Shown here: positions 22,801 through 64,000 of the stretch, one piece after another
How positions within the stretch are numbered: the first letter of the stretch is position 1
Layout of the letters: the number at the start of each line of letters is the position of its first letter
Source: Squalus acanthias
Taxonomy: Eukaryota
Assembly (NCBI GenBank): GCA_030390025.1
Contig: CM059431.1
Location: forward strand, 144,834,001 to 144,898,000
DNA length: 64,000 bases
Direction of reading: 5' to 3'
Program-made: the position numbers and the translations under genes
Notes under the pieces: model-generated
What the model saw: the letters and a program-made list of their open reading frames with translations, nothing else
Databases searched by the model: none
Told to the model about the DNA's origin: nothing

Positions 22801-25800
22801 AACGGATTCCTGCACTATGCCAGTTCCCAGTCCCACGGGTCCCCGCACTCTGCCAGTTCCCAGTCCCACGGGTTCCCGCACTCTGCCAGATCCCAGTCCC
22901 ACGGGTTCCCGCACTCTGCCTGATCCCAGTCCCACGGGTACCCACACTCTGCCAGATCGCAGTCCCACGGGTTCCCACACTCTGCCTGATCCCAGTCCCA
23001 CGGGTACCCACACTCTGCCAGTTCCCAGTCCCACGGGTACCCACACTCTGCCAGTTCCCAGTCCCACGGGTTCCCACAATCTGTCAGATTCCAGTCCCAC
23101 GTGTTCCCACACTCTGCAAGATCCTAGTCCCACGTGTACCCACACTCTGTCTGATCCCAGTCCCACGGGTACCCGCACCCTGCCAGTTCCCATTCCCACG
23201 TGTATCCACACTCTGCCAGTTCCCAGTCCCACGGGTTCCCGCACCCTGCCAGTTTCCAGTCCCACGGGTTCCCACAATCTGTCAGATCCCAGACTCACGG
23301 GTTCCCACAATCTGTCTGATCCCAGTCCCACGGGTTCCCGCACTCTGTCAGAGCCCAGTCTCACGGGTTCCCGCACTCTGCCAGTTCCCAATCCCACGGG
23401 TTCCCGCACTCTGCCAGTTCCCAGTCCCACGGGTTCCCACACTCTGCCAGTTCCCAGTCCCACTGGTACATGCATTCTGACAGATTCCAGCCTCAAGGTT
23501 TTCCGCACTCTGCCACATCCCAGTCACACGTGTACCCACATTCTGTCAAATCGCAGTCCACGGATTCCAGCACCCTGCCAGTTCCCAGTCCCACGTGTAC
23601 CCACATTCTGCCAGTTCCCAGTCCCACGGGTTCCCGCACTCTGCCAGATCCCAGTCCCACGGGTTCCCCCACTCTGCCAGTTCCCAGTCGCACGGGTTCC
23701 CACACTCTGCCAGTTCCCAGTCGCACGGGTTCCCACACTCTGCTAGATCCCAGTCCCACGAGTTCCCACACTCTGCCAGATCCCAATCCCACGGGTTCCC
23801 GCACTCTGCCAGTTTACAGTCCCCCGGGTCCCCGCACTCTGCCAGATCAGAATCCCACGGGTTCCCGCTCTCTGTCAGATCCCAGTCTCACGGGAAGCTG
23901 CACTTTGCCAGCTTCCAGTCCCACGGGTTCCCACAATCTGTCAAATCCCAGTCTCACGGGTTCCCACTCTCTGCCAGATCCCAGTCCCACGGGTTTCCGC
24001 ACTCTGTCAGATCCCAGTCCCACTGGTACACGCATTCTGACAGATTCCAGTCGCAAGGTTTCCCACAATCTGTCAGATCACAGTCCACAGGTTCCCCCAC
24101 TCTGCCAGTTCCCAGTCCCACGGGTTCCCAAACTCTGGCACTTCCCAGTCTCACGGGTTCCCACAATCTGTCTGATCCCAGTCCCACGGGTTCCCACAAT
24201 CTGTCAGATCACAGTCCACAGGTTCCCGCACTCTGCCAGATCCCAGTCCCACGGGTTCCCACAATCTGCCAGTTCCCAGTCTCACGGGTTCCCACAATCT
24301 GTCTGATCCCAGTCCCACGGGTTCCCACACTCTGCCAGATCCCAGTCTCACGGGTTCCCACTCTCTACCAGATCCCAGTCCCACGGGTTCCCGCACTCTG
24401 TCAGATGCCAGTCTCACGGGTTCCAGCACTCTGCCAGTTCCCAGTCCCATGGGTTCCCACACTCTGCCAGTTCCCAGTCCCACGGGTTCCCGCACTCTGC
24501 CAGATCCCAGTCTCACGGGTTCCCACACTCTGCCAGATCCCAGTCCCACGGGTTCCCAAACTCTGGCACTTCCCAGTCCAACGGATTCCTGCACTCTGCC
24601 AGTTCAAAGTCCCACGGGTTCCCACAATCTGTCAGATTCCAGTCTCACGGGTTCCCACCATCTGTCTGATCCCAGTGTCACGGGTTCCCGGACTCTGCCA
24701 GATCCCAGTCCCACGGGTTCCCGCACCCTGCCAGTTCCCAGTCCCACGGGCTCCCGCACTCTGTCAGATCCCAGTCTCACGGATAGCTGCACTCTGCCAG
24801 TTTCCACCCACGGGTTCAAACAATCTGTCAAATCCCAGTCTCACGGGTTCCCACAATCTGTCTGATCCCAGTCCCACGGGTTCCCGCACTCTGCCAGATC
24901 CCAGTCTCACGGGTTCCCATTCTCTGCCAGTTTCCAGTCCCACGGGTTCCCGCACCCTGCTAGTTCCCAGTCCCAAGGGTACCCGCACTCTGTCAGATCC
25001 CAGTCTCATGGGATCCCACTCTCTGCCAGTTTCCAGTCCCACGGGTTCCCACAATCTGTCTGATCCCAGTCCCACGGGTTCCCGGACTCTTCCAGATCCC
25101 AGTCTCACGGGTTGCCACTCTCTGCCAGATCCCTGTCCCACGAGTTCCAGCACTCTGCCAGTTTACAGTCCCACGGATTCCCGCACTCTGTCAGATGCGA
25201 GTCTCACGGGTTCCAGCACTCTGCCAGTTCCCAGTCCCACGGGTTACCACACTCTGTCATTTTCAAGTCCCACGTGTACCCGCACTCTGCCAGATTCCAG
25301 TCTCACGGGTTCCCGCACTCTGCCAGTTCCCAGTCCCACGGGTTCCCCCACTCTGCCAGCGCAGAATCCCACGGGTTCCCACACTCTGCCAGTTCCAAGT
25401 TCCACTGGTACACGCATTCTGACAGGTTCCTGTCTCAATGTTTCCCACAATCTGTCAGATTCCAGTCGCACGGGTTCCTGCACTCTGCCAGATCCCAGTC
25501 CCACGTGTACCCACACTCTGTCAGATCACAGTCCACGGATTTCCGCACCCTGCCAGTTCCAAGTCCCACGTGTACCCATACACTGTCAGATCCCAGTCCC
25601 ACGGGTTCCCTCACCCTGCCAGTTCCCAGTCCCACGGGTTCCCACAATCTGTCAAATCCCGGTCTCACGGGTTCCCACAATCTGTCTGATCTTAGTCCCA
25701 CGGGTTCCCGCACTCTGCCAGATCCCAGTCTCACGGGTTCCCACTCTCTGCCAGTTTCCAGTCCCACGGGTTCCCCCACTCTGCCAGTTTCCAGTCCCAC

Positions 25801-28800
25801 GGGTTCCCACACTCTGGCACTTCCCAGTCCCACGGGTTCCCACACTCTGCCAGCTCAGAATCCCACGGGTTCCCACACTCTGCCAGTTCCCAGTCCCACT
25901 GGTACACGCATTCTGACAGATTCCAGTCTCAAGGTTTCCCACAATCTGTCAGATTCCAGTCCCACGAGTTCCCGCACTCTGCAAGATCCCAGTCCCACGT
26001 GTACCCACACTCTGTAAATCCCAGTCCCACGGGTTCCCGCTCCCTGCCAGTTGCCATTCCCACGGGTTCCAGCACTCTGTCAGATCCCAGTCTCACGGGT
26101 AGCTGCACTCTGCCAGTTTCCAGTCCTACGTGTACCCACACTCTGTCAGATCTCAGTCCCACGGGATCCGCACTCTGCCAGTTCCCAGTCCCACGGGTTC
26201 CCCCACTCTGCCAGTTCCCCGTCCCCCGGGTTCCCAAACTCTGGCACTTCCCAGTCCAACGGGTTCCCGCACTCTGCCAGTTCACAGTCCCACGGGTTCC
26301 CACACTCTGCCAGATCCCAGTACCACGGGTTCCCGCACTCTGCCAGATCCCAGTCCCATGGGATCCGCACTCTGCCAGTTCCCAGTCTCACGGTTAGCTG
26401 CACTCTGCCAGTTTCCAGTCCCACGGTTTCCCCCTCTCTGCCAGTTCCCAGTCCCACGGGTTCCCACAATCTGTCAAATCCCACTCTCACGGGTTCCCAC
26501 AATCTGTCTGATCCCAGTCCCACGGGTTCCCACAATCTGTCAAATCCCAGTCTCACGGGTTCCCACAATCTGTCTGATCCCAGTCCCACGGGTTCCCGGA
26601 CTCTTCCAGATCCCAGTCTCACGGGTTCCCACTCTCTGCCAGATCCCTGTCCCACGAGTTCCAGCACTCTGCCAGTTTACAGTCCCACGGGTTCCCACAC
26701 TCTGCCATTTTCCAGTCCCACGTGTACCCGCACTCTGCCAGATTCCAGTCTCACGGGTTCCCGCACTCTGCCAGTTCCCAGTCCCACGGGTTCCCACACT
26801 CTGCCATTTTCCAGTCCCACGTGTACCCGCACTCTGCCAGATCCCAGTCCCACGGGTTCCCGCACTGTCCCAGTTCCCAGTCCCACTGGTACACGCATTC
26901 TGACAGATTCCAGTCTCAAGGTTTCCCACAATCTGTCAGATTCCAGTCCCACGGGTTCCCTCACCCTGCCAGTTCCCAGTCCCACGGGTTCCCGCACTCT
27001 ACCAGATCCCAGTCTCACGTGTTCCCACTCTCTGCCAGTTTCCAGTCCCATGGGTTCCCACACTCTGCCAGATCAGAATCCCACGGTTTCCCACAGTCTG
27101 CCAGTTCCCAGTCCCACGGGTTCCCGCACTCTGTCAGATCCCAGTCCCACGGGATCCGCACTCTTCCAGTTCCCAGTCCCACGGGTTCCCGCACTCTGTC
27201 AGATCCCAGTTAAACGGGATCCGCACTCTGCCAGTTCCCAGTCCCACGGATTCCCGCACTCTACCAGATCCCATTCCCAAGGTTTTCCCGCACTCTGCCA
27301 GATCCCATTCCCACGGGTTCCCGCACTCTGCCAGATCCCAGTCTCACGGGATCCCACTCTCTGCCAGTTTCTAGTCCCATGGGTTCCCACACTCTGCCAG
27401 ATCAGAATCCCACGGGTTCCCACAGTCTGCCAGTTCCCAGTTCCACGGGTTTCCGCACTCTGTCAGATCCCAGTCCCACGGGATCCGCACTCTGCCAGTT
27501 CCCAGTCCCACGGGTTCCCGCACTCTGTCAGATCCCAGTCCCACGGGATCCGCACTCTGCCAGTTCCCAGTCCCACGGATTCCCGCACTCTGCCAGATCC
27601 CAATCCCAAGGTTTTCCCGCACTCTGCCAGATCCCATTCCCAGGGGTTCCCACACTCTGCCAGATCCCAGTACCACGGGTTCCCGCACTCTGCCAGATCC
27701 CAGTCTCACGGATTCCCACACTCTGCCAGATCCCAGTCTCACGGATTCCCACACTCTGCCAGTTCCCAGTCCCACGGATTCCCGCACTCTGCCAGTTCCC
27801 AGTCCCACGGGATCCGCACTCTGCCAGTTCCCAGTCCCACGGATTCCCGCACTCTGCCAGATCCCAATCCCAAGGTTTTCCCGCACTCTGCCAGATCCCA
27901 TTCCCAGGGGTTCCCACACTCTGCCAGATCCCAGTACCACGGGTTCCCGCACTCTGCCAGATCCCAGTCTCACGGATTCCCACACTCTGCCAGATCCCAG
28001 TCTCACGGATTCCCACACTCTGCCAGTTCCCAGTCCCACGGATTCCCGCACTCTGCCAGTTCCCAGTCCCACGGATTCCCGCACTCTGCCAGTTTCCAGT
28101 CTCATGTGTTCCCGCACATTGCCAGATCCCAATCCCACGCATTCCCGCACTCTGCCAGTTTCCAGTCCCACAGGTTTCCGCACTCTGGCAGTTCCCAGTC
28201 TCACGGGTTCCCGCACTCTGCCAGATCCCAGGCCCACGGGTTCCCGCATTCTGCCAGATTCCAGGCCCACGGGTTCCCACATTCTGCCAGTTTCCAGTCT
28301 CACGTTTTCCCACACTCTGCCAGTTTCCAGTCTCACGTGTTCCCACACTAATCCAGAACCCATTCCCTCGGTTTCCAACACTCAGCCAGATCCCAGGCCC
28401 ACGGGTTCCCGCACTCTGCCAGTTCCCAGTCCCACCGCTTCCCGCACTCTGCCAGTTCCCATTCCCGCGGTTTCCCAGACTCTGCCAGTTCCCAGTCCCA
28501 CAGGTACCCGCACTCTGCCTTTTTCCAGTCCCACGGGTTCCCGCACTCTGCTAGATTCCAGTCGCACGAGTACCCACAATCTACCAGTTTCCAGTCTCAC
28601 GGGTCACCGCACTCTGCCAGATCCCAGTCTCACGAGATCCCGCACTCTGCCAGTTTCCAGTCCCACGGGTTGCCACATCTGTCGTATCCCAGTCACACGG
28701 GTTCCCGCAGTCTGCCAGTTTCCAGTCTCACGTGTTCCCACACTCTGTCGGATTCCATTCACACGGGTTCCCACACTCTGCCAGTTTCCAGTCCCACGGG

Positions 28801-29030
28801 TTCCCGCACATTTCCAGATCACAGTCCCACGGGTTCCCGCACTCTGCCAGATGCCAGTCTCACGGGTTCCCACACTCTGTCGGATTCCATTCACACGGGT
28901 TCCCACACTCTGCCAGTTTCCAGTCCCATGGGTTCCCGCACATTTCCAGATCACAGTCCCACGGGTTCCCGCACTCTGCTAGATGCCAGTCTCACGGGTT
29001 CCCACACTCTGCCAGTTCACAGTCCCAAGC
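13897..29030. repeat. 33-bp minisatellite, main block (~460 units), with higher-order repeats
   Basis: Consensus CCCAGTCCCACGGGTTCCCGCACTCTGCCAG(T/A)T. Variant units recur in identical order at several offsets (198, 264, 462, 2930, 4809, 5470 bp). Confidence 0.98.
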
Positions 29031-32000: not shown

Positions 32001-32131
32001 TTGACTTTGTTTACTCGGATTTCCCTTATTGTTTCTCACCCTTCTAACATTTGTTTCTGACTGCATATTACTTCCCCCTGTTTCGCTACATAGGTTCCCA
32101 TTCCCCTGCCAAATTAGTTTAAATCCTCCCG
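29033..32131 (-). mobile_element. CR1-clade LINE (subfamily A), 5'-truncated at the end of ORF1, with disrupted ORF2 (APE endonuclease + reverse transcriptase)
   Basis: Minus-strand ORFs 30804-32495, 30580-30804, 29928-30575 and 29130-29900 give EN motifs (LNARSI, GITETW, SDH) and RT motifs ([26 protein letters not shown]). FADD is mutated to SEDD and there are frameshifts. The 3' tail is (TTTCTATG)-like at 29033-29055. Confidence 0.96.
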
Positions 32132-33424
32132 CACTCTGCCAGATCCCAGACCCACCGGTTCCCACACTCTGCCAGTTTCCAGTCCCACGGGTTCCCGCAC
32201 TCTGCCAGACCCCATTCCATCGGGTTCCCACACTCTGCCAGATCCCAGTCCCACGGGTTCCCGCACTCTGCCAGACCCCAGTCCCTCGGGTTCCCGCACT
32301 CTGCCAGACCCCAGTCCCTCGGGTTCCCACACTCTGCCAGTTTCCAGTCCCACGGGTTCCCCCACTCTGCCAGGTCCCAGTCTCACGGGTTCCCGCACTC
32401 TGCCAGTTTCCAGTACCACGCGTTCCCGCACTCTGCCAGTTTCCAGTCGCACAAGTACCCACAATCTGCCTGATCCGAGTCGCACGAGTTCCCACACTCT
32501 GCCAGATCCCAGTCCCACGGGTCCCCGCACTCTGCCAGATCCCAGTCCCACGGGTTCCCGCAATCTACCAGTTTCCAGTCTCACGTGTTCCCGCACTCTG
32601 CCATTTCCCAGTCCCACGGTTCCCCGCACTCAGCCAGATCCCAGTCCCACGGGTTCCCACACTCTGCCAGATCCCAGTCCCACGGGTTCCCACACTCTGC
32701 CAGATCCCAGTCTCACGGGTTCCCGAACTCTGCCAGATCCCAGTCACACGGGTTCCTGCACTCTGCCAGTTTCCAGTCTCACGTGTTCCCGCACTCTGCC
32801 AGTTTCCAGTCCCACGGGTTCCCGCATATTTCCAGATCCCAGTCCCATGGTTTCCCGCACTCTGCCAGATCACAGTCCCAAGGTTATTCCGCACCCTGCG
32901 AGATCCCAGTCTCCCGGGTTCCCACACTCTGCCAGATCCCAGTCTCCCGGGTTCCCACACTCTGCCAGTTTCCAGTCTCACGGGTTCCCACACTCTGCCA
33001 GATCCCAGTCCCAAGGGTTGCCGCACTCTGCCAGTTTACCGTCCCATGGGTTGCCGCACTCTGCCAGATTACAATCTCACCGGTTCCCACACTCTGCCAG
33101 ATCCCAGTCTCACGGGTTCCCGCACTCTGCCAGTTCCCAGTCCCACGGTTACCCACACTCTGCCAGATCCCAGTCTCACGGGTTCCCGCACTCTGCCAGT
33201 TACCAGTCCCACGGTTACCCACACTCTACCAGATTCCAGTCCCACGGGTTCCCGCACTCTGCCAGTTCCCAGTCCCACGGTTACCCACGCTCTACCAGAT
33301 TCCAGTCCCACGGGTTCCCACACTCTGCCAGTTTGCAGTCTCACGGGTCCCCACACTCTGACAGTTCCCATTCCCACGGGTTCCCGCACTCTGCCAGATC
33401 ACAGTCCCACGGGTTCCCACACTA
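32127..33424. repeat. 33-bp minisatellite, distal block (~39 more diverged units)
   Basis: Same consensus as 13897-29030, resuming directly after the LINE 5' end. Confidence 0.97.
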
Positions 33425-33808
33425 TGATAGTTCTAGATCTCCCCCTTTTTCTAGAATGGCCCCTCGAATATCAGAGGAATAGAGTTCGGATGAAATCTGT
33501 TGTTGTTGACACAATACGTGTTCAGTTTACATCATTTGGGCTGTGTGGGCAGTTCTGGTAAGCTAATCATGGAAGGTATATTTCTGCACTTTATAGGTCA
33601 GACAGCTCTGTACCAGAGATTGCAGGAATTCACAATTCCAGTTTTGAAGAAATTATACAAAATCCTGCTTTCCATCTTTAGAAAAGAAGAAACCTCCAGC
33701 TGATCTAATGTCAGTTTTAATGTAACGAGGAGAATGCACAAATTACCCAACTTCTTCACGGCAGCAAGGAGTTCAATCATAAAGATCTATAAATTCAAAA
33801 TGTGAAAT

Positions 33809-35814
33809 TAGATACATAGATACATAGATACATAGAAGATAGGAGCAGGAGTAGGCCATCCGGCCCTTCGAGCCTGCTCCGCCATTTAATGAGATCATGG
33901 CTGATCCTGCAATTCAGTACCTCGTCCCCGCCTTCTCTCCGTAACCCTTAACCCCTTTTGCCTGTAGAAATATATCTAATTCCCTCTTAAATATATTTAA
34001 TGAGCTGGCGTACACTGCCCTCTGTGGCAATGAGTTCCACAGGTTCACCACCCTCTGAGTGAAGAAATTCCCCCTCATTTCTGTCCTAAATGGTTTAGCC
34101 CTTATCCTTAAATTATGTCCTCTAGTTCTGTTCTCACCCGCCAAGGGAAACATTCCTTCTGCATCTAGTCTGTCTAGACCTGTCAGAATTTTATACACTT
34201 CTATGAGGTCCCCTCTCAATCTTCTAAACTCCAGTGTGTACATCCCTAAACTACATAGTCTCTCCTCATAGGTCAATCCCGCCATTCCTGGTATCAGCCT
34301 GGTGAATCGCCACTGCACCCCCTCCATGGCAAGAACATCTTTCCTCAGATGAGGCGACCAAAACTGTACACAGTACTCGAGGTGTTGTCTCACCAGTGCC
34401 CTGTACAGCTGCAGCAAGGTATCCCTGTTCCTGTATTCCAACCCTTTTGCTATGAAGGCCAGCATACCGTTTGCCTTCTTGACCGCCTGTTGCACCTGCA
34501 TGCTCGCCTTCAGTGACTGGTGTACAAGAACACCCAGGTCTCTCTGTACTTCCCCCTCTCCCAATTTATTGCCATTTAAATAATAATTTGCCCTCCCATT
34601 CCTGCACCCAAGGTGGATAACTTCGCACTTGTCCACATTATAGTGCATCTGCCATTTATCCGCCCAATCACCCAGTCTGTCCAAATCGCTCTGGAGCTTC
34701 CTGGTCTCCTCCTCTGAGCCCACCCCCCCTCCTAGTTTAGTGTCGTCTGCAAATTTGGAAATGCTGCATCCAACTCCCTGATCCAGGTCATTAATGTAAA
34801 TTGTGAACAGCTGGGGACCCAGGACAGATCCCTGTGGTACCCCACTTGTTACTGCCTGCCATTCAGAAAATGAGCCGTTTATTCCAACTCTCTGTTTTCT
34901 ATCTGACAGCCAGTTCTCTATCCACGTCAATACTTTCCCCTTTATCCCATGAGCTTCAATTTTCCATGCTAATCTTTTATGTGGGACCTTATCGAAGGCC
35001 TTTTGGAAGTCCAGGTACACCACATCTATTGGCTCTCCCCATCTATTTTAGCAGTTACTCCCTCAAAAAATTCCAATAGATTAGTCAAGCACGATTTACC
35101 CTTTGTAAATCCATGTTGACTCTGTCCTATCCTGTCCCCATTTGCTAAGTGCTCCGCTATTTCATCTTTAATGATGGACTCCAGCATTTTGCCCACAACT
35201 GATGTAAGGCTTACAGGTCTGTAATTACCTGCTTTTTCCCTACCCCCCTTTTTGAATAGTGGGGTAACGTTAGCTACCCTCCAATCCATGGGCACTGTTC
35301 CCGAGTCTAATGAATTCTGAAAAATCATACTTAGTGCATCCGCTATATCTAGGGCCACCTCCTTCAGTACCCTAGGATGCATGTTATCAGGCCCTGGGGA
35401 TTTGTCCGCCTTCAATCCCTTTAGCTTCCTTAACACCATATCCTTAGAGATATTGATTTGCGTCAGTTCCTCCTTTGCCAATGTCCCTATTTTTCCCGAT
35501 ATCCCAGGGAGGTTTTTTGTGTCTTCCTTCGTAAAGACTGACCCAAAGTATGCATTTAGTTGGTCTGCCATTTCCTTATTTCCCGTTATATATTCCCCCG
35601 TATCTGACTGCAATGGACCAACTTTGGTTTTCACCAGTCTTTTCCTCTTGATATAGTTATAAAAGCTTTTGGAGTTAGTTTTTATATTTTCCGCCAGCTT
35701 GCTTTCGTAAGCTATTTTGCCCCTCTTTATTAAGCCCTTTGTCCTCCTTTGCTCTATCTTAAACTGTTCCCAATCTTCCGCTCTGGCGCTTTTTTTGGCT
35801 ATTTTATACGCCCT
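33809..35814 (-). mobile_element. CR1-clade LINE (subfamily B), 3' part (RT and 3' UTR) of an element split by the 35815-39136 insertion
   Basis: ORFs 35026-35634 and 33914-35023 (KFADDTKL), with one frameshift in a G run near 35035. The tail is (TATCTATG)n at 33809-33837. The sequence continues exactly at 39137. Confidence 0.96.
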
Positions 35815-38800
35815 GGATTGCTACCAGGGCCACGAGCTAATCAGAATAGAGAGAACAGGATAGTGAGATTGAATACATGGCTTGAGCAGTGGTGCAGGAG
35901 GGAGGGATTCAAATTCCTGAGGCATTGGAACCAGTTCTGGGGGAAGTGGGACCTGTACAAAAGGGACGGTCTGCACTTGGGCAGGACTGGAACCGATGTC
36001 CTCGGGGTAATATTTGCTAAAGCAGTTCGGGAGGATTTAAACTAATATGGCAGGGGAAGGGGAACCTATGTAGCGAAACAGGGGGAAGTAATATGCAGTC
36101 AGAAACAAATGTTAGAAGGGTGAGAAACAATAGGGGAAGGCCGAGTAAACAAAGGCAAGAAACACAAAGGGCCATACTAAATCAAAAGTCTAAAAGGACA
36201 AAGGATGTTAATAAAATAAGCCTAAAGGCTCTGTGTCTTAATGCAAGGAGTATCCGTAATAAGGTGGATGAATTGACTGTGCAAATAGATGTTAACGGAT
36301 ACGATGTGATTGGGATTACAGAGACGTGGCTCCAGAACAATCAAGGCTGGGAACTGAACATCCAGGGGTATTCAACATTCAGAAAGGATAGAATAAAAGG
36401 AAAAGGGGGTGGGGTAGCATTGCTGGTTAAAGAGGAGATTAATGCAATAGCTAGGAAGGACATCAGCTTGGAGGATGTGGAATCAATATGAGTTGAGCTG
36501 CAGAACACCAAAGGGCAGAAAAAGTTAGTGGGAGTTGTGTACAGACCTCCAAACAGCAGTGGTGAGGTGGGGGAGGGTATGAAACAGGAAATCAGAGGTG
36601 CGTGCAAAAAAGGCACGGCAGTTATCATGGGTGACTTTAATATGCATATAGATTGGGCTACTCAAACTGGAAGCAATAAGGTGGAGGAGGATTTCCTGGA
36701 GTGTTTAAGGGATGGTTTCCTAAACCAATATGTTGAGGAACCAACTCGAGGGGAGGCCATCCTGGACTGGGTGTTGTGTAATGAGGAAGGACTAATCAGC
36801 AATCTTGTGGTACGAGGCCCCCTGGGGAAGAGTGACCAAAGTATGGTGGAGTTCTACATTAGGATGGAGAAGGAAACAGTTTAGTCAGAGACCATGGTCC
36901 AGAACTTAAATAAGGGCAACTTTGATGGTATGAGGCGTGAATTGGCGAGGTTAAATTGGCAAGCGATATTTAAGGGGCTATCAGTGGAAGGGCAATGGCA
37001 GACATTTAGAGATCGCATGGATGAACTACAACAATTGTACATCCCGGTCTGGCGTAAAAATAAAAAAGGGAAGGTGGCTCAACCATGGCTAACAAGGGAA
37101 ATCAGGGATAGTATTAAAACCAAGGAAGTTGCATACAAATTGGCCAGAAGTAGCAGCAAACCCGGGGACTGGGAAAACTTCAAAACTCAGCAAAGGAGGA
37201 CGAAGGGTTTGATTAGGGCAGGGAAAATAAAATATGAAAGGAAGCTTGCAGAGAACATTAAAATGGACTGCAAAAGCTTCTATAAATATGTAAAAAGAAA
37301 GAGGTTAGTAAAAACAAACGTAGGTCTCCTGCAGTCGGAAACAGGGCAAGTCGTAATGGGGAACAAGGAAATGGCAGATCAATTGAACAAGTACTTTGGT
37401 TCGGTGTTTACTGTGGAGGACACACACAACCTGCCGGAAATAAAAGGGGTCAGAGGATCTGGTAAGAGGGAGGAGCTGAGGGAAATCCTTATTAGTCGGG
37501 AAAAGGTATTGGGGAAATTGATGGGACTGAAGGCTGAAAAATCCCCGGGGCCTGATGGTCTGCATCCAGAGTACTTAAGGAGGTGGCCTTGGAAATAGTG
37601 GATGATTTGACGATCATTTTCCAACATTCCTTAGACTCTGGATCAGTTCCGATGGAGTGGAGGGTGGCCAATGTAACCCCTCTTTTTAAAAAAGGAGGGA
37701 GGGAGAAAGCAGGGAATTATAGACCGGTCAGCCTGACATCGGTCGTGGGTAAAATGATGGAAGCAATTATTAAAGATGTCATAACAGACCATTTGGAAAG
37801 TGGCGACATGATAGGTCCAAGTCAGCATGGATTTGTGAAAAGGAAATCATGCTTAACAAATCTTCTGGAATTTTTTGAGGATGTTTCCAATAGGGTGGAC
37901 AGGGGGGAACCAGTAGATGTGGTGTATTTGGACTTTCAGAAGGCCTTCGACAAGGTCCCACACAAGAGATTGGTGAGCAAAGTTAAAGCACATGGGATTG
38001 GGGGTAATGTGTTGACGTGGATTGAGAACTGGTTGGCACACAGGAAACAAAGAGTAGGAGTAAATGGGTACTTTTCAGAATGGCAGGCAGTGACCAGCGG
38101 GGTACCGCAGGGTTCGGTGCTGGGACCCCAGCTGTTTACATTATATATTAATGATTTGGACGAAGGGATTAAATGTAATATCTCCAAATTTGCGGATGAC
38201 ACTAAATTGGGAGGCAGTGTGAACAATGAGGAGGATGCTAGGAGGCTACAGAGTGACTTGGACAGGTTGGGTGAATGGGCAAATGTATGGCAGATGAAGT
38301 ACAATGTGGATAAATGTGAGGTTATCCACTTTGGTGGTAAAAATAGAGAGGCGGACTATTACCTGAATGGTGGCAGATTAGGGAAAGGGGAGGTGCAACG
38401 AGACCTGGGCGTTATGGTTCATCAGTCACTGAAGGTGGGAATGCAAGTGCAGCAGGCAGTCAAGAAAGCAAACGGAATGATGGCCTTCATAGTAAGGGGA
38501 TTTGAGTACGGGAGTAGGGAGGTGATGCTGCAGTTGTACAGGGCCTTGGTGAGGCCACACCTGGAGTACTGTGCGCAGTTTTGATCTCCGAACTTAAGGA
38601 AGGACATTCTTGCTATTGAGGAAGTGCAGCGAAGTTTCACTAGATTGATTCCTGGGATGGCCGGACTGACATATCAAGAAAGATTGGGTCAACTGAACTT
38701 GTATCCTCTGGAGTTCAGAAGAATGAGGTCGGATCTTATCGAGACATTTAAAATCCTGACTGGTTTAGACAAATTAGATGCGGGCAGAATGTTCCCAATG

Positions 38801-39136
38801 TTAGGGAAAACTTGAACCAGGGGTCACAGTCTAAGGATTAAGGGGAAGCCATTTAAGACTGAGCTGAGGAGGAACTTCTTCACCCAGAGAGTGGTGAATC
38901 TATGGAATTCTCTTCCACAGAAGGTTGTTGAGGCCAGTTCGCTAAATATATTCAAAAGGGAGTTAGATATAACACTCACAACTAGGGGGATCAAGGGGTA
39001 TGGCGAGAAAGCAGGAATGGGGTACTGAGGTAGCATGTTCAGCCATGAACGCATTGAATGGCGGTGCAGGCTCGAAGGACCGAATGGTCTACTCCTGTAC
39101 CTATTTTCTATGTTTCTATGTTTCTATGTTTCTATG
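35815..39136 (+). mobile_element. CR1-clade LINE (subfamily A) nested inside the subfamily B element; starts in the ORF1 C-terminus; ORF2 has several stops and a frameshift
   Basis: ORF1 end (GLLP...DGLHL...VREDLN*), then ORF2 pieces 36093-36491, 36528-36884, 36894-37598, 37583-38584 and 38624-38815. (TTTCTATG)n tail ends at 39136. Flanked by a duplicated (G)CCCT. Confidence 0.96.
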
Positions 39137-41345
39137 CCCTATCTTTGGATTTTATGCTGTCTCTAATTTCCCCTGTTATCCACGGTTGAGTCACCTTTTT
39201 AGATTTCCTTTTATGCCAGATTGGTATAAACAATTTTTGCAATTTTGTCATTCTATCTTTAAATGCTTGCCATTGTTTATCTACCTCCAGTCCTCCCAGG
39301 AACGTTGTCCAATCAGACCTACTCAGTTCCCGTCTAATGGCATCATAATTCCCGTTGTTTAAATTCAGGACCTTAGTCTCTGAGTCAATTTCTTCGCTCT
39401 CCATTTCGAGTGAGAAATCGATCATGTTATGATCGCTCTGACCCAAGGGTCCCCGTACAACAAGATTACTAATTAGTCCCTTCTCATTGCACAGTACCCA
39501 GTCCAATATAGCCTGTTCCCGAGTTGGTTCCTCGACATATTGATCCAGATAACCATCCCTTAAACACTCAAGGAATTCCTCCTCCTCATTATTTTTACTG
39601 ATTAGGCTAGTCCAATCTATATGTAAGTTAAAGTCACCTATGATGACAGCTGTGCTCTTATTGCACGCTTCTCTAATTTCCCTCGTGATGCCCTCCCCAA
39701 CCTCTATTTTACTATTTGGAGGCCTATATACCACTCCTATTAATGTTTTTCGCCCCTCGCTATTTCTTAGCTCCACCCATATAGATTCTGTATTAACTGA
39801 GTTAATATCCTTCCTTTCAATTGCATTTATCCCCTCTTTTACCAGCAATGCTACCCCTTCTCCCTTTCTTTTTTGTCGATCCTTCCTAAATACTGAATAC
39901 CCCTGTATGTTAAGCTCCCAGCCCTGCTCACCCTGCAACCATGTTTCCGTAATCCCAATTAGATCATAATTATTAACCTCTATTTCCACAGCTAATTCAT
40001 CTACCTTGTTCCTGATGCTTCTCGCATTAAGGTATAAAACCCTCAGGCTTTTTTTATGCTCACATTTTTTATGAATTAGTTTGGCCCTTTGTTTTTTGTT
40101 CCTCACCCTTTTACCATTTATTTCTGTCTGCCTTTCACTTTCCTCTATTTCACTACATAGGTTTCTAGCCCCCTGCCATGCTAGTTTAAATGCTCCCGAA
40201 CTGCTTTATCAAAAATTACCCCGAGAACATCAGTTCCATCTTTGCACAGGTGTAGACCGTCCCTTTTGTATAGGTCACACCTACCACAAAACTGGTTCCA
40301 ATGCCTCAAAAATTTAAAACCCTCCCTCTTACACCACTGCTCAAGCCACGTATTTAGCCTAACTATCCTGTTCTCTGTACTCTTACTAGCACGTGGCACT
40401 GGTAGTAATCCAGAGATTACTACCTTCGAGGTCCTACTTTTTAGCTTGGCTCCTAACTCCCTAAATTCTACTTGTAGGACCTCTTCCCTTTTTTTAGCTA
40501 CATCGTTGGTACCAACATGTATCACGACAACTGGCTGTTCCCCCTCCCCCTCCAGAATGTTCTGCACCCGCGCTGAGACATCCTTGACCCTTGCACCAGG
40601 GAGGCAACATACCATCCTGGAGTCTCGGTCGCGACCACAGAAACCCCTATCTATTCCCCTTACAATCGAATCCCCTATTACTATAGCCCTGCCACTCTTT
40701 TTCCCTCCCTTCTTTGCAACAGAGCCAGTCATGGTGCCATGAGCCTGGCTGCTGGTGCCTTCCCCCGATGAGTCATCCCCCCCCGACAACAGCACCTAAG
40801 GCGGTGAACCTGTTGCTAAGGGAGACAACCCCAGGGGATTTCTGCACTACCTTCCTGCCCTTGCTCTGCCTTTTGGTCACCCATGTACTATCTACGCTGG
40901 CCTTAACCTGCGGTGTGACCAACTCACTAAATGTGCTATCCACAACCCTCTCAGAATCGTGGATGCTCCAAAGTGAGTCCATCCGCAGCTCAAGGGCCGT
41001 AATGCGGTCCCACATGAGCTGCAGCTGGACACACTTCCCGCACACATGGTTGTCAGGGACACAGGAAGCGTCCCTGATTTCCTACATGTTACAGGAGGAG
41101 CATGACACAGGTCCGAGCTCTACTGCCATGACTTAACCCTTATATTACTTTTTAATTTTCTAGTTTTAGTTTATTTATTGACTTTTGTTTTCCCGAAGCT
41201 TACTTAGACCAATGTATACTGTACTCCTCTTATTCCTTTTTAAACTAACCAAATCCCACTAGTTTTAGTTTTACTTTCTAGGAAGGTTTGAGGAAAGTAC
41301 TTACCAGTTAGTCTTACCTCCCTGGTCTTTCGCTGACTTCCCGGT
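39137..41345 (-). mobile_element. CR1-clade LINE (subfamily B), 5' part: 5' UTR, ORF1 and endonuclease region of ORF2
   Basis: ORF 39132-40106 is the APE endonuclease, open back to 40190. ORF1 lies at 40181-41129, with an AT-rich 5' UTR upstream. The exact 5' boundary is uncertain (about 41340-41390). Confidence 0.93.
40181..41129 (-). pseudogene. CR1 ORF1: N-terminal CxxC...CxxC zinc-finger/coiled-coil plus SGNH esterase-like domain; one stop and one frameshift
   Basis: ATG at 41129 reads MAVELGPVSCSSCNM*EIRDASCVPDNHVCGKCVQLQL (TAG at 41082-41084). Frameshift in a G run near 40780. Esterase motifs are IGDSIVRG, HVGTND and DGLHL. Confidence 0.9.
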
Positions 41346-41773
41346 CTTGTGTCCCCTTGGAGTGAGAAGGGGCGCCGGGCGGAACATTTCACCTCACTGG
41401 GTAACTGTATTCTTTATGTTATTTACTGAGTTACCAGAGCGGTCATGCAGTACAAACCTATGTATCTGGCTCTGAAGTTGACAACTGGATTATCGAAAGT
41501 TTAGCACATGCCAAACCTAACCTTCTCGAAACAAACTGCAACATCCATGTGCTGCATAACACAGGCAAAGGTAAACTGATGAACCTCAATCTGAGGAGTT
41601 AAATAATCATGATATGCAACGAAAAAAACCAGAAAATTATCTTGAAAGAAGGGAAGATTATCAAAAAGTACACTTTTAAGTGGAATACTCCTGTCACTAC
41701 ATTTACTGCAATTTAGGAGGCAATAACAGGAACTCTATTATTTAACGTTAGATTGTTAAGTTGCTGATTTATA

Positions 41774-44083
41774 CTGGATCAATATGTCGAGGAACCAACT
41801 CGGGAACAGGCTATATTGGACTGGGTACTGTGCAATGAGAAGGGACTAATTAGTAATCTTGTTGTACGGGGACCTTTGGGTCAGAGCGATCATAACATGA
41901 TCGATTTCTCACTCGAAATGGAGAGCGAAGAAATTGACTCAGAGACTCAGGTCCTGAATTTAAACAAGGGGAATTATGATGCCATTAGACGGGAACTGAG
42001 TAGGTCTGATTGGACAACGTTCCTGGGAGGACTGGAGGTAGATAAACAATGGCAAGCATTTAAAGATAGAATGACAAAATTGCAAAAATTGTTTATACCA
42101 ATCTGGCATAAAAGGAAATCTAAAAAGGTGACTCAACCGTGGATAACAGGGGAAATTAGAGACAGCATAAAATCCAAAGATAGGGCGTATAAAATAGCCA
42201 AAAAACGCGCCAGAGCGGAAGATTGGGAACAGTTTAAGATAGAGCAAAGGAGGGCAAAGGGCTTAATCAAGAAGGGCAAAATAGCTTACGAAAGCAAGCT
42301 GGCGGAAAATATAAAAACTAACTCCAAAAGCTTTTATAAGTATATCAAGAGGAAAAGACTGGTGAAAACCAAAGTTGGTCCATTGCAGTCAGATACGGGG
42401 GAATATATAATGGGAAATAAGGAAATGGCAGACCAACTAAATGCATACTTTGGGTCAGTCTTTACGAAGGAAGACACAAAAAACCTCCCTGGGATATCGG
42501 GAAAAATAGGGACATTGGCAAAGGAGGAACTGACGCAAATCAATATCTCTAAGGATATGGTGTTAAGGAAGCTAAAGGGATTGAAGGCGGACAAATCCCC
42601 AGGGCCTGATAACATGCATCCTAGGGTACTGAAGGAGGTGGCCCTAGAGATAGCGGATGCACTAAGCATGATTTTTCAGAATTCATTAGACTCGGGAACA
42701 GTGCCCATGGATTGGAGGGTAGCTAACGTTACCCCACTATTCAAAAAGGGGGGTAGGGAAAAAGCAGGTAATTACAGACCTGTAAGCCTTACATCAGTTG
42801 TGGGCAAAATGCTGGAGTCCATCATTAAGGATGAAATAGCCGAGCACTTAGCAAATGGGGACAGGATAGGACAGAGTCAACATGGATTTACAAAGGGTAA
42901 ATCGTGCTTGACTAATCTATTGGAATTTTTTGAGGGAGTAACTGGTAAAATAGATGGGGGAGAGCCAGTAGATGTGGTGTACCTGGACTTCCAAAAGGCC
43001 TTCGATAAGGTCCCACATAAAAGATTAGCATGGAAAATTGAAGCTCATGGGATAAAGGGGAAAGTATTGACGTGGATAGAGAACTGGCTGTCAGATAGAA
43101 AACAGAGAGTTGGAATAAACGGCTCATTTTCTGAATGGCTGGCAGTAACAAGTGGGGTACCACAGGGATCTGTCCTGGGTCCCCAGCTGTTCACAATTTA
43201 TATTAATGACCTGGATCAGGGAGTCGAATGCAGCATTTCCAAATTTGCAGACGACACTAAACTAGGAGGGGGGGTGGGCTCAGAGGAGGAGACCAGGAAG
43301 CTCCAGAGCGATTTGGACAGACTGGGTGATTGGGCGGATAAATGGCAGATGCACTATAATGTGGACAAGTGCGAAGTTATCCACCTTGGGTGCAGGAACG
43401 GGAGGGCAAATTATTATTTAAATGGCAATAAATTGGGAGAGGGGGAAGTACAGAGAGACCTGGGTGTTCTTGTACACCAGTCACTGAAGGCGAGCATGCA
43501 GGTGCAACAGGCGGTCAAGAAGGCAAACGGTATGCTGGCCTTCATAGCAAAAGGGTTGGAATACAGGAACAGGGATACCTTGCTGCAGCTGTACAGGGCA
43601 CTGGTGAGACCACACCTCGAGTACTGTGTACAGTTTTGGTCGCCTCATCTGAGGAAAGATGTTCTTGCCATGGAGGGGGTGCAGCGGCGATTCACCAGGC
43701 TGATACCAGGAATGGCGGGATTGACCTATGAGGAGAGACTATGTAGTTTAGGGATGTACACACTGGAGTTTAGAAGATTGAGAGGGGACCTCATAGAAGT
43801 GTATAAAATTCTGACAGGTCTAGACAGATTAGATGCAGAAGGAATGTTTCCCTTGGCGGGTGAGAACAGAACTAGAGGACATAATTTAAGGATAAGGGCT
43901 AAACCATTTAGGACAGAAATGAGGGGGAATTTCTTCACTCAGAGAGTGGTGAACCTGTGGAACTCATTGCCACAGAGGGCAGTGTACGCCAGCTCATTAA
44001 ATATATTTAAGAGGGAATTAGATATATTTCTACAGGCAAAAGGGGTTAAGGGTTACGGAGAGAAGGCGGGGACGGGATACTGA
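41774..44083 (+). CDS. Uninterrupted partial CR1 ORF2 (end of endonuclease plus complete reverse transcriptase), no native start
   Basis: The 755-aa ORF in the track is open 14 codons further upstream. It contains [36 protein letters not shown] and DLG motifs. Confidence 0.9.
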   Translation: MDQYVEEPTREQAILDWVLCNEKGLISNLVVRGPLGQSDHNMIDFSLEMESEEIDSETQVLNLNKGNYDAIRRELSRSDWTTFLGGLEVDKQWQAFKDRMTKLQKLFIPIWHKRKSKKVTQPWITGEIRDSIKSKDRAYKIAKKRARAEDWEQFKIEQRRAKGLIKKGKIAYESKLAENIKTNSKSFYKYIKRKRLVKTKVGPLQSDTGEYIMGNKEMADQLNAYFGSVFTKEDTKNLPGISGKIGTLAKEELTQINISKDMVLRKLKGLKADKSPGPDNMHPRVLKEVALEIADALSMIFQNSLDSGTVPMDWRVANVTPLFKKGGREKAGNYRPVSLTSVVGKMLESIIKDEIAEHLANGDRIGQSQHGFTKGKSCLTNLLEFFEGVTGKIDGGEPVDVVYLDFQKAFDKVPHKRLAWKIEAHGIKGKVLTWIENWLSDRKQRVGINGSFSEWLAVTSGVPQGSVLGPQLFTIYINDLDQGVECSISKFADDTKLGGGVGSEEETRKLQSDLDRLGDWADKWQMHYNVDKCEVIHLGCRNGRANYYLNGNKLGEGEVQRDLGVLVHQSLKASMQVQQAVKKANGMLAFIAKGLEYRNRDTLLQLYRALVRPHLEYCVQFWSPHLRKDVLAMEGVQRRFTRLIPGMAGLTYEERLCSLGMYTLEFRRLRGDLIEVYKILTGLDRLDAEGMFPLAGENRTRGHNLRIRAKPFRTEMRGNFFTQRVVNLWNSLPQRAVYASSLNIFKRELDIFLQAKGVKGYGEKAGTGY

Positions 44084-49204: not shown

Positions 49205-50614
49205 CTAGTTCGGCTTTGTTTCATGTTTAACCAATCTTAGAATCAGTGTCCAGGGAGATTTCAGCACCTTCTTCAGCTCTTCTCTGAACTTCCTCTGGGT
49301 CGCTGCATATATACACGTGTTCGTACAGGAACTCAAAAGCGTCAGCATGGCTCCGGTTTCAGTGGCGATATAGGCTGGGTTTGTGCGGTCGCCTCGGTAA
49401 TAATTGACATTTGTCATTCTGGTAATTAAAAAATTCACTGCAGATGTCAGCCACAGCAATATAAAACTGCCCGAAATAGCGAAGAGCAAAATGATGGATT
49501 TCCTTCGGCTCTCCATCTCTGGATCGCTCTGATTCTCACTGCTATGACCCCGGAGTCCCCTGCGGGCTCTGCTGGCCATTAAAATACGTCTGACGGTAAA
49601 ACAATTAAACAAGGCCATTAAAGTAAAGGGAAGCCAAACGCGCCATATGGTGTGAAATCAGAGATACGCTTCACCTGGAGGGGAGGGAAAAAAAGCTACA
49701 CTTGACTGACAGCCCCACTGCACCTTGTTAATTATTTGCTGAGATTCATATGCAAACAACACGGGGATGCCCTTTAAAAATATTAGAAACGTGAACGTTG
49801 TTATAACCGCGGCCGCAGTTCTCTCGGTGCAATACTTTGCTTTAAACTTCTGGCAGCAGATAACTACAAATCGGTCAAATGTGAAGGAGACGGTGAACCA
49901 AACAGACAAATCGAAGGTGACAGCATTCATGTATAGATTGAACTTACACACGGGACTGTGGGACAGGAATGAACGTGGAAAGTGATAACTGAAAATATAA
50001 TACACCATTACATTAAAGATCATGACCAGTAGATCTGCTGTTGCCATGGCCACCATGTAGACAGAGATACACTTGGAAAGGCTGCAGTTTCTTCGGGAGA
50101 TCATCACGATTGTCACCAAGTTTGCTGTAAGAGAGAGAGAGGAGAGAAATAAAGTTCTAGTGTCTGATTGAAATATATATGGAGATACTTGTGGAGAGCA
50201 TTTCACTCCATTCAGTGTGATTATCAACACAGAGCAGTGTGAGAACAGGATTAGTATTGGAGCCATTACCTGGGAAACCCACCCACACATTTTAATCAGC
50301 TGCTGCAGAGCTCACTCTGCACGGGGGGACAAGACGGTCAGGAAATCCGCTAAAATCCTTGTGTTGGAGCTTCGAAGAGGATTGTAACATCAGTAATGTT
50401 ATCATACCAATGCAACTGGGAAAGTGCGGACACGCGGTTCACTGTGTCATGCTGACATCTGTAAAACAGTTACCATATCCAACATGCGACATGAACAGTG
50501 AGGCGGTTAACACCGATTAACAAAAAAAGGTTAGAATGGCTCACCGGGGACACCGAAAGCTGCGAGAATCGGGTAGTAAATCTCTTTTATCAGCAGTATA
50601 GCTGGTCGCCCCAT
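49205..50614 (-). pseudogene. GPR139/GPR142-like class A GPCR. Two coding exons (50614-50545 and 50124-49205), 329 codons, with one in-frame TGA at codon 179 (49658-49660)
   Basis: Exon 1 is MGRPAILLIKEIYYPILAAFGVP|gtgag, then a 420-bp phase-1 intron ending in a (CT)-rich tract and ttacag. Exon 2 reads ANLVTIV..MATADLL..TFDRFVVIC..AYL*FHTIWRVWLPF..SIILLFAISGSFILLWL..SCTNTCIYAATQRKFREEL. Seven hydrophobic segments. Track ORFs 49658-50290 and 49205-49618 are in the same frame. Confidence 0.9.
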
Positions 50615-51049: not shown

Positions 51050-51140
51050 CATTAGAGATGACCATGTTCTTCTGGTAATATTAGCTCCTAAAACTTACAC
51101 TAGACGTGACCCTGCTCCTCCACTACTAGTGACAACCTAC
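51050..51140. repeat. Degenerate ~48-bp tandem repeat, left part
   Basis: ACTTACACTAGA..GACC.TGCTCCTCCACTACTAGTGA.AACCTAC unit, the same as 55518-55965. Confidence 0.7.
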
Positions 51141-54100: not shown

Positions 54101-55450
54101 CCCCCCCTTATTTTGTTTAAAGCCCTAACTACCTCCCTAGTTATTCGATTCGCTAGAACTCTGGTCCCAGCATGGTTCTTGTGTAGTCCGTTCCAATGGA
54201 ACAGCTCTCTCTTTCACCATTACTGGTGCCAGTGCCCCACGAATCGAAACCCACTTCTCCCACACCAATGTTTGAGCCACGCATTCATCTCCCTGATCCT
54301 ATTGACCCTATGCCAATTTGCTCGCGGCTCAGGTAATAACCCAGAGATTATTACCTTTTAGGTTCTGCTTTTTAATTTAGTTCCAGCTGCTCAAACTCTC
54401 TCAGCAGAACCTTTATCTTAATCCTACCTATGTCGTTGGTACCTACGTGGACCACGACAACTGGTTCCTCGCCCTCCCATTGCAAGTTCTTGTCCAGCCC
54501 GGGGGAGATGTCTTTTACCCTGGCACCAGGTAGGCAACATAGCCTTCGGGTCTCACGCTCCTGGCTGCAGAGAACAGTGTCTATCCCCCTAACTATAGTG
54601 TCGCCTACAATAACCACCTTCATTTTTACTTTCCCTACTTGAACGGCTTCCTGTAACACGGTGCAGTGGTCAGTTTGCTTTCCTCCTCGCAGTCCCCGCA
54701 CTTGTCCACAAGGGTTACAAGAACCTCGAATCTATTGGACAAGTGCAGGGGCTGAGGCTCCTGCAATCCTACCTCCTGGATCCCCGTACTTGCCTCACTC
54801 ACAGTCACAACCTCCTGTCCATGACCTCGTGTCAATTCTAAAGTATTTAGTCTAAGGGGTGTAGCTGCCTCCTGGAGAAAAAGGTCCAGGTAACTTTCTC
54901 CCTCCCTGATGTCTCGCGATGTCTGCAGCTTGGACTCCAGCTCCTCAATTCGGAGCCGAAGTTCCTCGAGCCGCAGATACTTACCGCAGGTGTAGTCACC
55001 CTGGACAAAAGTGACCACAAGCTCCCACATATTGCAGCAGCAACACATATTTCCTGTTCTCCCATTATTTTATTGAGTTATTAATTTATTAGTTTAGTGG
55101 GAATCAAAGTATTTGCCTCGTTTCATTTATTAAATTAATTAAAGTAAATTTAGTTTTTAAAATTTTGTTATATGTTATATGCTAACTTAAAAGTTAGCCC
55201 CCAGTCACGACCAATCACTTACCTGATTTACCTGTGACGTCACACTGCAGTTTTCTCTTGTTGTTGCAGGTCTGCTGCTGCTTTTACCCCGCTCTCGGGC
55301 CTCGGTCTGCTCCCGCTCAGGTCAGACGCCGCTCTGCGGGAGAGGTTAGGAAAAGCAAGGAAAAGCAGCACCTCCTTCCCCCACTTCACCGAACTCCCAC
55401 ACTTACCAAACTCCAAATGTGTTCACTTTGTTTCAAGTTGCACTCCATGA
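51140..55450 (-). mobile_element. Near full-length but decayed CR1-clade LINE (third subfamily), with a deletion of the RT core
   Basis: (TTTCTATG)n tail at 51140-51165, RT pieces 51570-51968 and 52056-52583, EN pieces 53386-53898, and ORF1 pieces 54372-54701 (VGDTIVRG, HVGTND) and 54635-55065 (CxxC..CGK). The 5' UTR extends to about 55450-55515. Confidence 0.92.
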
Positions 55451-63559: not shown

Positions 63560-64000
63560 GACGGGACGGGCTCCACCGGGCCAGGTCCAGTGTCATGGCG
63601 AACGGAATAACTAGGGCAGTAGAAAGGGCTTTAAACCAATGAAGGGTGGGGGAGGGGAGGGGAGGATTCAGTAAATTTAAAAGCAGTGATATGTCGAGGC
63701 TCTGGAGCAGAGTAGAATTTTGGGTAAAAATAAGCAGAATGGTTCAGGAAGGGACAGAGAGAGTAACAAAGGTAATAAGGCATCAGTGACTAAGTTGACA
63801 TCAGGGAAAGAGAAATAAGCCAAAGCTAAAGGCACTATATCTGAATGCACGAAGCATTCGCAACAAAATAGATGAATTAATAGCGCAGATTGAAATGAAC
63901 AGGTTTGATCTAATAGCCATAACAGACACGTGGTGGCAAAGTGGCCAAGGTTGGTAACTAAATATTCCAGGATACTTAAATTTGAGAAGAGATAGGCAAA
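63560..64000 (+). mobile_element. CR1-clade LINE starting at the end of ORF1 and running off the window in the endonuclease domain
   Basis: DGLH...ITRAVERALN, then LKALYLNARSIRNKIDELIAQIEMNRFDLIAITDTW. Confidence 0.88.

Follow-up and report, generated by a model that had tools for sequence, protein, structure and literature searches.

A conserved T_TTA_AAC heptamer at the ORF1/ORF2 junction of CR1 elements as a probable programmed -1 frameshift signal

Introduction

How does a CR1 element translate its second open reading frame (ORF2) when this frame lies one base back from the first (ORF1)? The question is raised by a 64,000-nucleotide stretch of Squalus acanthias DNA (GCA_030390025.1, contig CM059431.1, positions 144,834,001 to 144,898,000, forward strand), referred to as the window henceforth, in which every junction between ORF1 and ORF2 of the CR1 long interspersed nuclear elements (LINEs) carries the heptamer TTTAAAC. 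[quoted passage not shown] In 2013, the translation of LINE ORF2 was called unclear, and only reinitiation and 2A skipping were discussed, the latter already in print for APE-type LINEs (PMC3708506). We found that the T_TTA_AAC heptamer at the CR1 junction is real and deeply conserved, and that a programmed -1 frameshift signal is its most likely explanation.

The five junctions of the window

Positions 1-29000 of the window are satellite DNA, and nested LINE copies follow. Pfam and structure searches identified ORF1 of these LINEs as an SGNH/GDSL esterase (PF13472, E 1e-11; PDB 4C1B, which we take to be the esterase ORF1 of the zebrafish L2 LINE ZfL2-1, E 8e-30) and ORF2 as an APE endonuclease (PF14529/PF03372) followed by a reverse transcriptase (RT; PF00078). 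Arrays of 8-bp repeats stand at the LINE ends (39101-39136, 33809-33836, and 51139-51168), which completes the CR1 layout; a 3' end made of 8-bp repeats without poly(A) is a feature of CR1. The closest named protein relatives are elasmobranch. The RT tree was made without named CR1 or L2 references, and the window junctions resemble rows labelled CR1 in a 2026 survey of the CR1 group (PMC13343379).

A preliminary description of the window had placed TTTAAAC at all five junctions, at 32117-32123 (-), 36036-36042 (+), 40184-40190 (-), 54115-54121 (-), and 63630-63636 (+), which we confirmed. According to blastn searches with the junction regions, these five are the only junction-bearing CR1 copies in the window. 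The window holds 14 matches to TTTAAAC against 4.3 expected (14 reached in 0 of 100 shuffles), and none of the remaining nine lies at a junction. Read in the ORF1 frame, the site is GAT, CAT, or GCT and then TTA AAC, which phases the heptamer as T_TTA_AAC (X_XXY_YYZ), with ORF2 in the -1 frame. This phase, proposed earlier for every copy, is seen directly in the ORF1 frame except at 32117, where just ~10-12 nt of ORF1 remain before a 33-bp satellite, so that the phasing of this copy rests on homology to 36036. As had also been described, the heptamer stands directly before the ORF1 stop codon or before its apparently mutated equivalent in the two old copies, the next codon being TAA (32117, 36036), TAG (40184), AAA (54115), or CAA (63630), and the -1 frame of the three well-preserved, young copies reads FKLIWQG or FKLAWQG and is open into the endonuclease.

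The features of the junctions are as follows.
36036..36042, + strand: U_UUA_AAC heptamer closing ORF1 (…REDLN) in a copy of subfamily A, read from the sequence
36043..36045, + strand: ORF1 stop TAA directly 3' of the heptamer, read from the sequence
36049..36062, + strand: G-rich tract, +7 to +20, with no stable hairpin, pseudoknot, or predicted G-quadruplex in the 36036 copy
35803..36042, + strand: 3' part of ORF1 (C-terminus of the SGNH esterase) of a 5'-truncated CR1 copy
36036..39028, + strand: ORF2 (linker, APE endonuclease, RT) in the -1 frame; a dead copy with premature stops further on
40184..40190, - strand: heptamer of subfamily B, …REHLN then TAG; ORF2 open from FKLAWQG through the endonuclease
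40184..41130, - strand: full-length ORF1 region of subfamily B (Cys-rich N-terminus and SGNH esterase), with one stop and one frame break
32117..32123, - strand: heptamer of the second subfamily A copy; the 33-bp satellite takes the place of the upstream ORF1
54115..54121, - strand: heptamer of an old copy, …RALN, with AAA at the expected stop, then a G-run and a predicted G-quadruplex
63630..63636, + strand: heptamer of an old copy, …RALN, with CAATG for an inferred TAATG, then a G-run and a predicted G-quadruplex

Two parts of the earlier description needed adjustment. The five junctions are five copies but not five independent cases: 32117 and 36036 are 95% identical and share one subfamily, the other copies being 66-74% identical to these two, so that four subfamilies are represented. 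In addition, the sequence 3' of the heptamer had been described as strongly divergent, whereas a G-rich tract whose start lies between +8 and +12 is kept in all five copies.

Four sequencing runs covering 35830-36330 gave, among the variants listed, many at 35865-36017 and none at 36018-36058, which is only weakly consistent with a frameshift signal; none of the runs carrying the sequence is recorded as RNA. In-frame T_TTA_AAC also occurs within ORF2 of subfamily B, at 39357-39363 (-) and 41959-41965 (+), probably by chance; there, the -1 frame closes within six codons, and the 36036 copy has no slippery sequence at the corresponding position.

Conservation of the heptamer beyond Leu-Asn coding

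Within the CR1 frames of the window, Leu is encoded by TTA in 18% and Asn by AAC in 43% of cases, and the chance of obtaining the heptamer from codon usage, including the preceding wobble T, is 0.015-0.054 per lineage. Among the Leu-Asn pairs of these frames outside the junctions, 2 of 19 carry the motif, and these two represent a single site present in two copies.

For comparison across vertebrates, we used the supplement of PMC13343379, covering the first 400 nt of each consensus row; hosts were taken from the row labels and junction sites were read by eye. A search for the heptamer motif returned 23 matches, of which 17 lie at ORF1 ends and six are unrelated. The 17 junction rows come from dogfish, catshark, sawfish, stingray, chimaera, bowfin, a teleost, coelacanth, frog, alligator, and crocodile. 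As such a search is biased towards the motif, it was repeated with anchors that do not contain the heptamer. With an anchor on the codons of DGLHL, TTTAAAC followed by TAA or TAG was present in all nine CR1 rows with a visible junction among the places listed (22 of 24); one further CR1 row ends before the junction and was not counted. A G-tract and further anchors likewise retrieved the heptamer in 9/9 CR1 rows, leaving uncounted three in which the full site is not visible. Taken together, the heptamer-independent anchors gave TTTAAAC plus TAA or TAG in 13/13 vertebrate CR1 rows. The two DGLHL Leu codons of these rows vary among CTG, CTA, CTC, CTT, TTG, and TTA. The supplements of PMC4316615 (searchable files), PMC6523648, and PMC2734521 contained no junction sequences in the parts available; three heptamer matches in the first of these are not established as junctions.

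Among the vertebrate-type ORF1 proteins, 74 retain a full-length tail, and LN is the C-terminal dipeptide in 70 of them (lizards, turtles, frogs, a hummingbird, sharks, and rays); 37 of 111 matches were left out of this count as truncated, extended, or lacking the anchor. Each of the four other ends (LI, VN, SN, and FN) is one base away from TTA AAC. These comparisons indicate that the heptamer is conserved beyond the coding need: free synonymous variation of the Leu and Asn codons and of the preceding wobble base, looked for as evidence to the contrary, was not found.

Three shark rows of the supplement (ScyCan_CR1-1b, ScyCan_CR1-14, and SquAca_CR1-1) begin at or a few bases from the heptamer, as the 32117 copy does; exchange of ORF1 or a favoured point of truncation may lie behind this.

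The -1 frame is open from the heptamer into ORF2

Across six sites, the -1 frame contains no stops in the 199 codons between the heptamer and the first Met or the endonuclease, against 11.9% in the other frames. The first in-frame Met of ORF2 is codon 19 in subfamily A; at 40184 it is codon 255, beyond most of the endonuclease, so that this copy has no Met ahead of that domain. On the 5' side of the heptamer, a stop only a few codons away closes the ORF2 frame and no AUG intervenes, so that ORF2 cannot begin earlier.

Database proteins running from ORF1 into ORF2 (FKL… or …TKK…) were found in rays, a tortoise, and one further lineage: P0001, P0002, P0245, P0028, and P0153. They confirm the -1 register. 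In P0001, P0002, P0028, and P0245, the continuous frame is probably due to small indels in the copies or to correction of the gene models, and these proteins are not evidence of translation.

The same region bears on the idea that ORF2 is reached by splicing to a CAG acceptor in the G-rich tract, with CTAAT as the branch point, or from an overlapping upstream start. CTAAT…CAG/G in the shark subfamilies does resemble a branch point and acceptor. However, the gap between CTAAT and CAG is just 8 nt and holds no pyrimidine tract, CAG is missing in the crocodilian, frog, and coelacanth rows of the supplement (PMC13343379), and an upstream start is opposed by the ORF2-frame stop described above. We consider this explanation the least probable of all, with hardly any chance of being correct.

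Distant relatives carry other shift-prone heptamers at the same place

We then compared more distant ORF1 proteins, clustered at 50% identity into 150 representatives; the C-terminus was usable in 102, and the other 48 were set aside. A C-terminal dipeptide compatible with a slippery heptamer (16 are possible) was present in 55/102, against a background of 5% (LN 41, GN 11, KN 2, and NL 1), and such a dipeptide lay within the last four residues in 70/102; binomial p-values for these counts take no account of relatedness among the proteins, and we place no weight on them. The LN, GN, KN, and FF/GF ends fall on separate branches. In one subclade, KN stands at a fixed position in eight proteins with the stop 2-12 codons later; P0153, a member of this subclade, reads …TKK on into the endonuclease.

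DNA-level evidence was obtained from metagenomes, where loci were found via two esterase motifs that exclude the junction; the best 80 of 280 confirmed loci were analyzed, and an endonuclease was detected downstream in 58 of these 80. ORF2 is open in the -1 frame in four loci, and all four have a shift site: G_TTA_AAC in L001, G_GGA_AAC in L002 and L007, and T_TTA_AAC in L014. In their RTs, L001, L002, and L007 share 55-57% identity with the window. Strong hairpins follow the site at +8 in L007 (z -4.8) and at +11 in L014 (z -4.6). The CR1-like ORF1 of L007 (423-1313) has a 150-residue low-complexity tail after the esterase; G_GGA_AAC and its hairpin are at the far end of this tail, the heptamer again at the stop. 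In L014 the stop comes eight codons past the heptamer, and together with the KN group this means that the stop need not adjoin the heptamer. The most shift-prone heptamers include U_UUA_AAC, G_GGA_AAC, and A_AAA_AAC, and equine arteritis virus has the G_UU(A) variant (PMC5009743). Distant CR1 relatives swap one predicted slippery heptamer for another at the same place, an exchange that is predicted neither by protein constraint nor by reinitiation.

If the esterase merely had to end in Leu-Asn, shared descent would account for the heptamer, with ORF2 translated from its own downstream AUG. LN is nearly invariant in the vertebrate ORF1 protein, and a Met is present in the linker or where the endonuclease begins in many families, as this explanation expects. 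It does not account for a fixed codon choice and preceding wobble T next to variable silent sites, for lineages ending in GN, KN, FF, or GF, for a -1 frame free of stops upstream of those Mets, or for the 40184 copy, which lacks a Met before the endonuclease. Protein constraint as the explanation is already largely refuted, and we regard it as very improbable.

Evidence against frameshifting and the case for reinitiation

The alternative that deserves most attention is a separate ORF2 product made by termination-reinitiation at or near the ORF1 stop, either of the UAAUG type known from SART1 or independent of AUG as proposed for mammalian L1, the heptamer being incidental or part of a reinitiation signal. 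SART1 and L1 provide precedents (PMC3708506, PMC5009743). A TAATG overlapping the ORF1 stop in the ORF2 frame is present in 3/17 supplement rows (PMC13343379) and was probably the original state at 63630, now CAATG; P0179, a protein of the TAATG type, starts MWQG. Near-cognate codons (ATA, ATT, or GTG) occupy the position in a few other cases, including ATA in the 36036 and ATT in the 32117 copy, and in several relatives a Met stands at the endonuclease or slightly upstream of it.

These observations weigh against a frameshift, and others do so too. No slippery-compatible dipeptide occurs within the last four residues of 32/102 representatives, and for the GN, KN, FF, and GF proteins the DNA is known for two GN cases only. 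The vertebrate rows are consensus sequences of shared ancestry, limited to 400 nt and read by eye. The three young shark copies and L001 and L002 have no stable 3' hairpin (z -1.2 to +1.1 versus shuffles) and no G-quadruplex predicted by ViennaRNA; no pseudoknot 3' of the site scored above shuffles, and no long-range partner for the G tract appeared in the two copies tested. Finally, the case for the -1 frameshift is one of sequence comparison throughout.

Reinitiation itself fits the data incompletely. The UAAUG overlap is absent at 36036, 32117, and 40184, and 12/17 supplement rows have neither an AUG nor a usual near-cognate at that codon (PMC13343379). It also leaves unexplained the switching of heptamers, the sites distant from the stop (L014 and the KN group), and hairpins at frameshift spacing. 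We consider it unlikely as the general explanation. It could act beside frameshifting in TAATG families, and the overlap in a minority of shark families means that reinitiation may contribute there too.

Sequence and structure 3' of the heptamer

In all five window copies, the G fraction at +4 to +25 is 0.36-0.73, against 0.23-0.29 further on, and a G-run of at least four starting at +7 to +14 was seen by eye in 12 of the 17 supplement rows (PMC13343379). The G-rich tract described earlier at every junction is thus present in all five copies, and no role for it as a stimulator emerged. In a -1 signal, a stimulatory stem-loop or pseudoknot is expected 5-9 nt downstream of the heptamer. None of the five has a strong 3' hairpin; ViennaRNA predicted a G-quadruplex in the two old copies (54115 and 63630) only, and Rfam returned no meaningful match at the junction. 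The missing stable 3' structure in the young copies means that frameshift efficiency could be low.

Other esterase LINEs have ORF2 behind an in-frame UGA

A second layout was seen among the 58 metagenome loci with an endonuclease. ORF2 is open and in frame with ORF1 in 33, and in 32 it lies behind a single TGA, followed by C in 29; UGA-C is a readthrough context. In L020, a sense codon replaces the TGA and the frame reads straight through. The in-frame UGA loci (L003, L004, L006, L008, L012, L048, L049, and the family L009-L079) lie outside the CR1-like group. They are mostly one expanded family, yet they represent three separate esterase lineages, and their RTs are 30-43% identical to that of the window. 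The in-frame linker of 11 representatives contains no stops, against 6.4% in other frames. In the remaining 21/58 loci the linkers are interrupted or shifted, mostly after the same ORF1 ends, and we read these loci as decayed copies. An in-frame UGA is probably a widespread readthrough layout of esterase LINEs outside CR1. As ORF2 of the window lies in the -1 frame, a ZfL2-1-type in-frame readthrough layout is not found there.

Discussion

The model that we propose starts from the site and its phasing, the conservation at its silent positions, the replacement of the heptamer by other shift sites, and a -1 linker that is open; from these we infer the slip, its efficiency, the fusion product, and the fate of the fusion. 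Most ribosomes would finish ORF1, ending …L-N-stop, while a minority would move back by one base on U_UUA_AAC, escape the stop, and enter ORF2. The slip may involve tRNA-Leu and tRNA-Asn together, or tRNA-Asn alone during slow decoding of the stop. The product would be a fusion of the ORF1 protein with endonuclease and RT, made at a low ratio like retroviral Gag-Pol, with the junction …EDLN/LIWQG…. Expression of ORF2 as an esterase-endonuclease-RT fusion by frameshifting, as put forward in the preliminary description, is supported by the silent-site conservation and the heptamer exchange; of the two trans-frame peptides suggested there, tandem slippage predicts EDLN/LIWQG and not EDFKLIWQG. 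In some of the distant relatives, a 3' hairpin may act as the stimulator; for vertebrates, the candidates are the adjacent stop and/or the G-rich tract, acting through a G-quadruplex or protein binding.

The layout has close parallels in retroviral gag-pol and coronavirus and arterivirus ORF1a/1b (PMC5009743), where a shift-prone X_XXY_YYZ in the upstream frame leads into a polymerase ORF in the -1 frame. In viral signals as in CR1, the upstream ORF is structural with the site at its end, and L007 and L014 share the 3' hairpin. CR1 differs in being an element without long terminal repeats (LTRs), in vertebrate sites that have an adjacent stop and a G-rich tract but no detectable stem-loop or pseudoknot, and in that its signal is known from sequence. 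Penelope-like elements use a frameshift and pseudoknot after ORF1 (PMC8557442), which, like CR1, is recoding without LTRs, and HeT-A has a frameshift within gag (PMC5009743); both are other classes of element. SART1 (UAAUG) and mammalian L1 (unconventional reinitiation) resemble CR1 in their bicistronic LINE RNA with coupled ORF2 expression (PMC3708506, PMC5009743), and UAAUG is also present in a minority of shark CR1 families (PMC13343379). They differ in that ORF2 protein is released free and no slippery heptamer is needed. Canonical vertebrate CR1 shares with the window copies the esterase ORF1, APE-RT ORF2, and 8-bp terminal repeats (PMC13343379).

Homology to the ORF1 esterase makes ZfL2-1 a further comparison. 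A 2012 study by Kajikawa et al. (Gene 499:41) is reported to have concluded that ORF2 of ZfL2-1 requires translation of ORF1, probably with suppression of the ORF1 stop, which amounts to a fusion. The in-frame UGA loci of the metagenomes match this layout. Unlike CR1, ZfL2-1 would use in-frame stop readthrough rather than a -1 frameshift, and it belongs to a different LINE clade. If ZfL2-1 does so, esterase LINEs already offer an example of a recoded fusion, which makes one in CR1 more likely beforehand and also less novel.

We found no report of CR1 frameshifting in the open full-text literature, a scope that ends short of the 1997-2012 primary papers and Repbase. The available text of PMC13343379 (2026) has no matches for 'frameshift', 'translation', 'overlap', or 'start codon', and that of PMC8557442 and PMC5009743 does not mention CR1 in the context of frameshifting. 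The overlap, with speculation on frameshifting, could well appear in Haas 1997, Kajikawa 1997/2012, Kapitonov and Jurka 2003, or Repbase, so novelty is not secured. The class of mechanism is well known; its use at the CR1 ORF1/ORF2 boundary was not found in the literature searched, and the vertebrate stimulator is probably non-standard.

A broader proposal would be that -1 frameshifting was in use before the vertebrates radiated and has ever since supplied the RT of the whole esterase-bearing CR1 clade, the dominant repeat of birds, reptiles, and sharks, as part of an ORF1-ORF2 fusion, that sister LINE clades arrive at such a fusion via UGA readthrough, in a split like that of retroviral gag-pol, that the vertebrate site is driven by the G-rich tract and/or the stop and not by a stem-loop, and that this is unpublished for CR1. 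We put it forward tentatively, since the chances lean against all of it holding at once. If frameshifting is used, the functional CR1 RT is an esterase-tethered fusion; ORF2 annotations from the first Met would be wrong at the N-terminus, screens for 'intact elements' would need redefinition, and experiments on isolated ORF2 would not capture the native protein. In vertebrates, the G-rich tract would then be a candidate for a natural G-quadruplex that stimulates frameshifting, something that a 2016 review described as anticipated and not known (PMC5009743).

Other features of the window and searches

An apparently full-length subfamily B element (33800-41700) is split by the 36036 copy, inserted at ~35820-39135, with GCCCT at both ends of the insertion as a likely 5-bp target-site duplication. 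A 98%-identical, 5'-truncated copy of this element lies at 41768-44083 in the opposite orientation. The CR1 copy that starts at the ORF1/ORF2 junction (32117) is flanked by the 33-bp satellite (13898-29027 and 32127-33423; ~459 and ~39 copies, 81-84% matches, with a 16/17-bp substructure). We rejected an origin of this satellite from the CR1 junction, as 87/200 shuffles scored equally well and there was no significant similarity to CR1. A very homogeneous 55-bp satellite (1-13696; ~250 copies, 99% matches) ends in a 200-N gap, and a 48-bp tandem repeat (~9 copies, 65% matches) lies at 55536-55961.

Scans of viral contigs returned no relatives, and a scan of prokaryote genomes returned 14 weak SGNH matches in bacterial records; neither endonuclease nor RT lay close to them, and they were left aside. 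CR1 ORF1 or ORF2 sequence makes up all or part of several annotated host gene models (P0002, P0197, P0205, P0212, P0218, P0247, and P0055), for example 'hydroxyacid oxidase 2 isoform X1'; these are likely annotation artefacts. A frame at 49205-50311 (-) resembles a G-protein-coupled receptor, with motifs of the seven-transmembrane type recognized by eye and a stop at ~49658.

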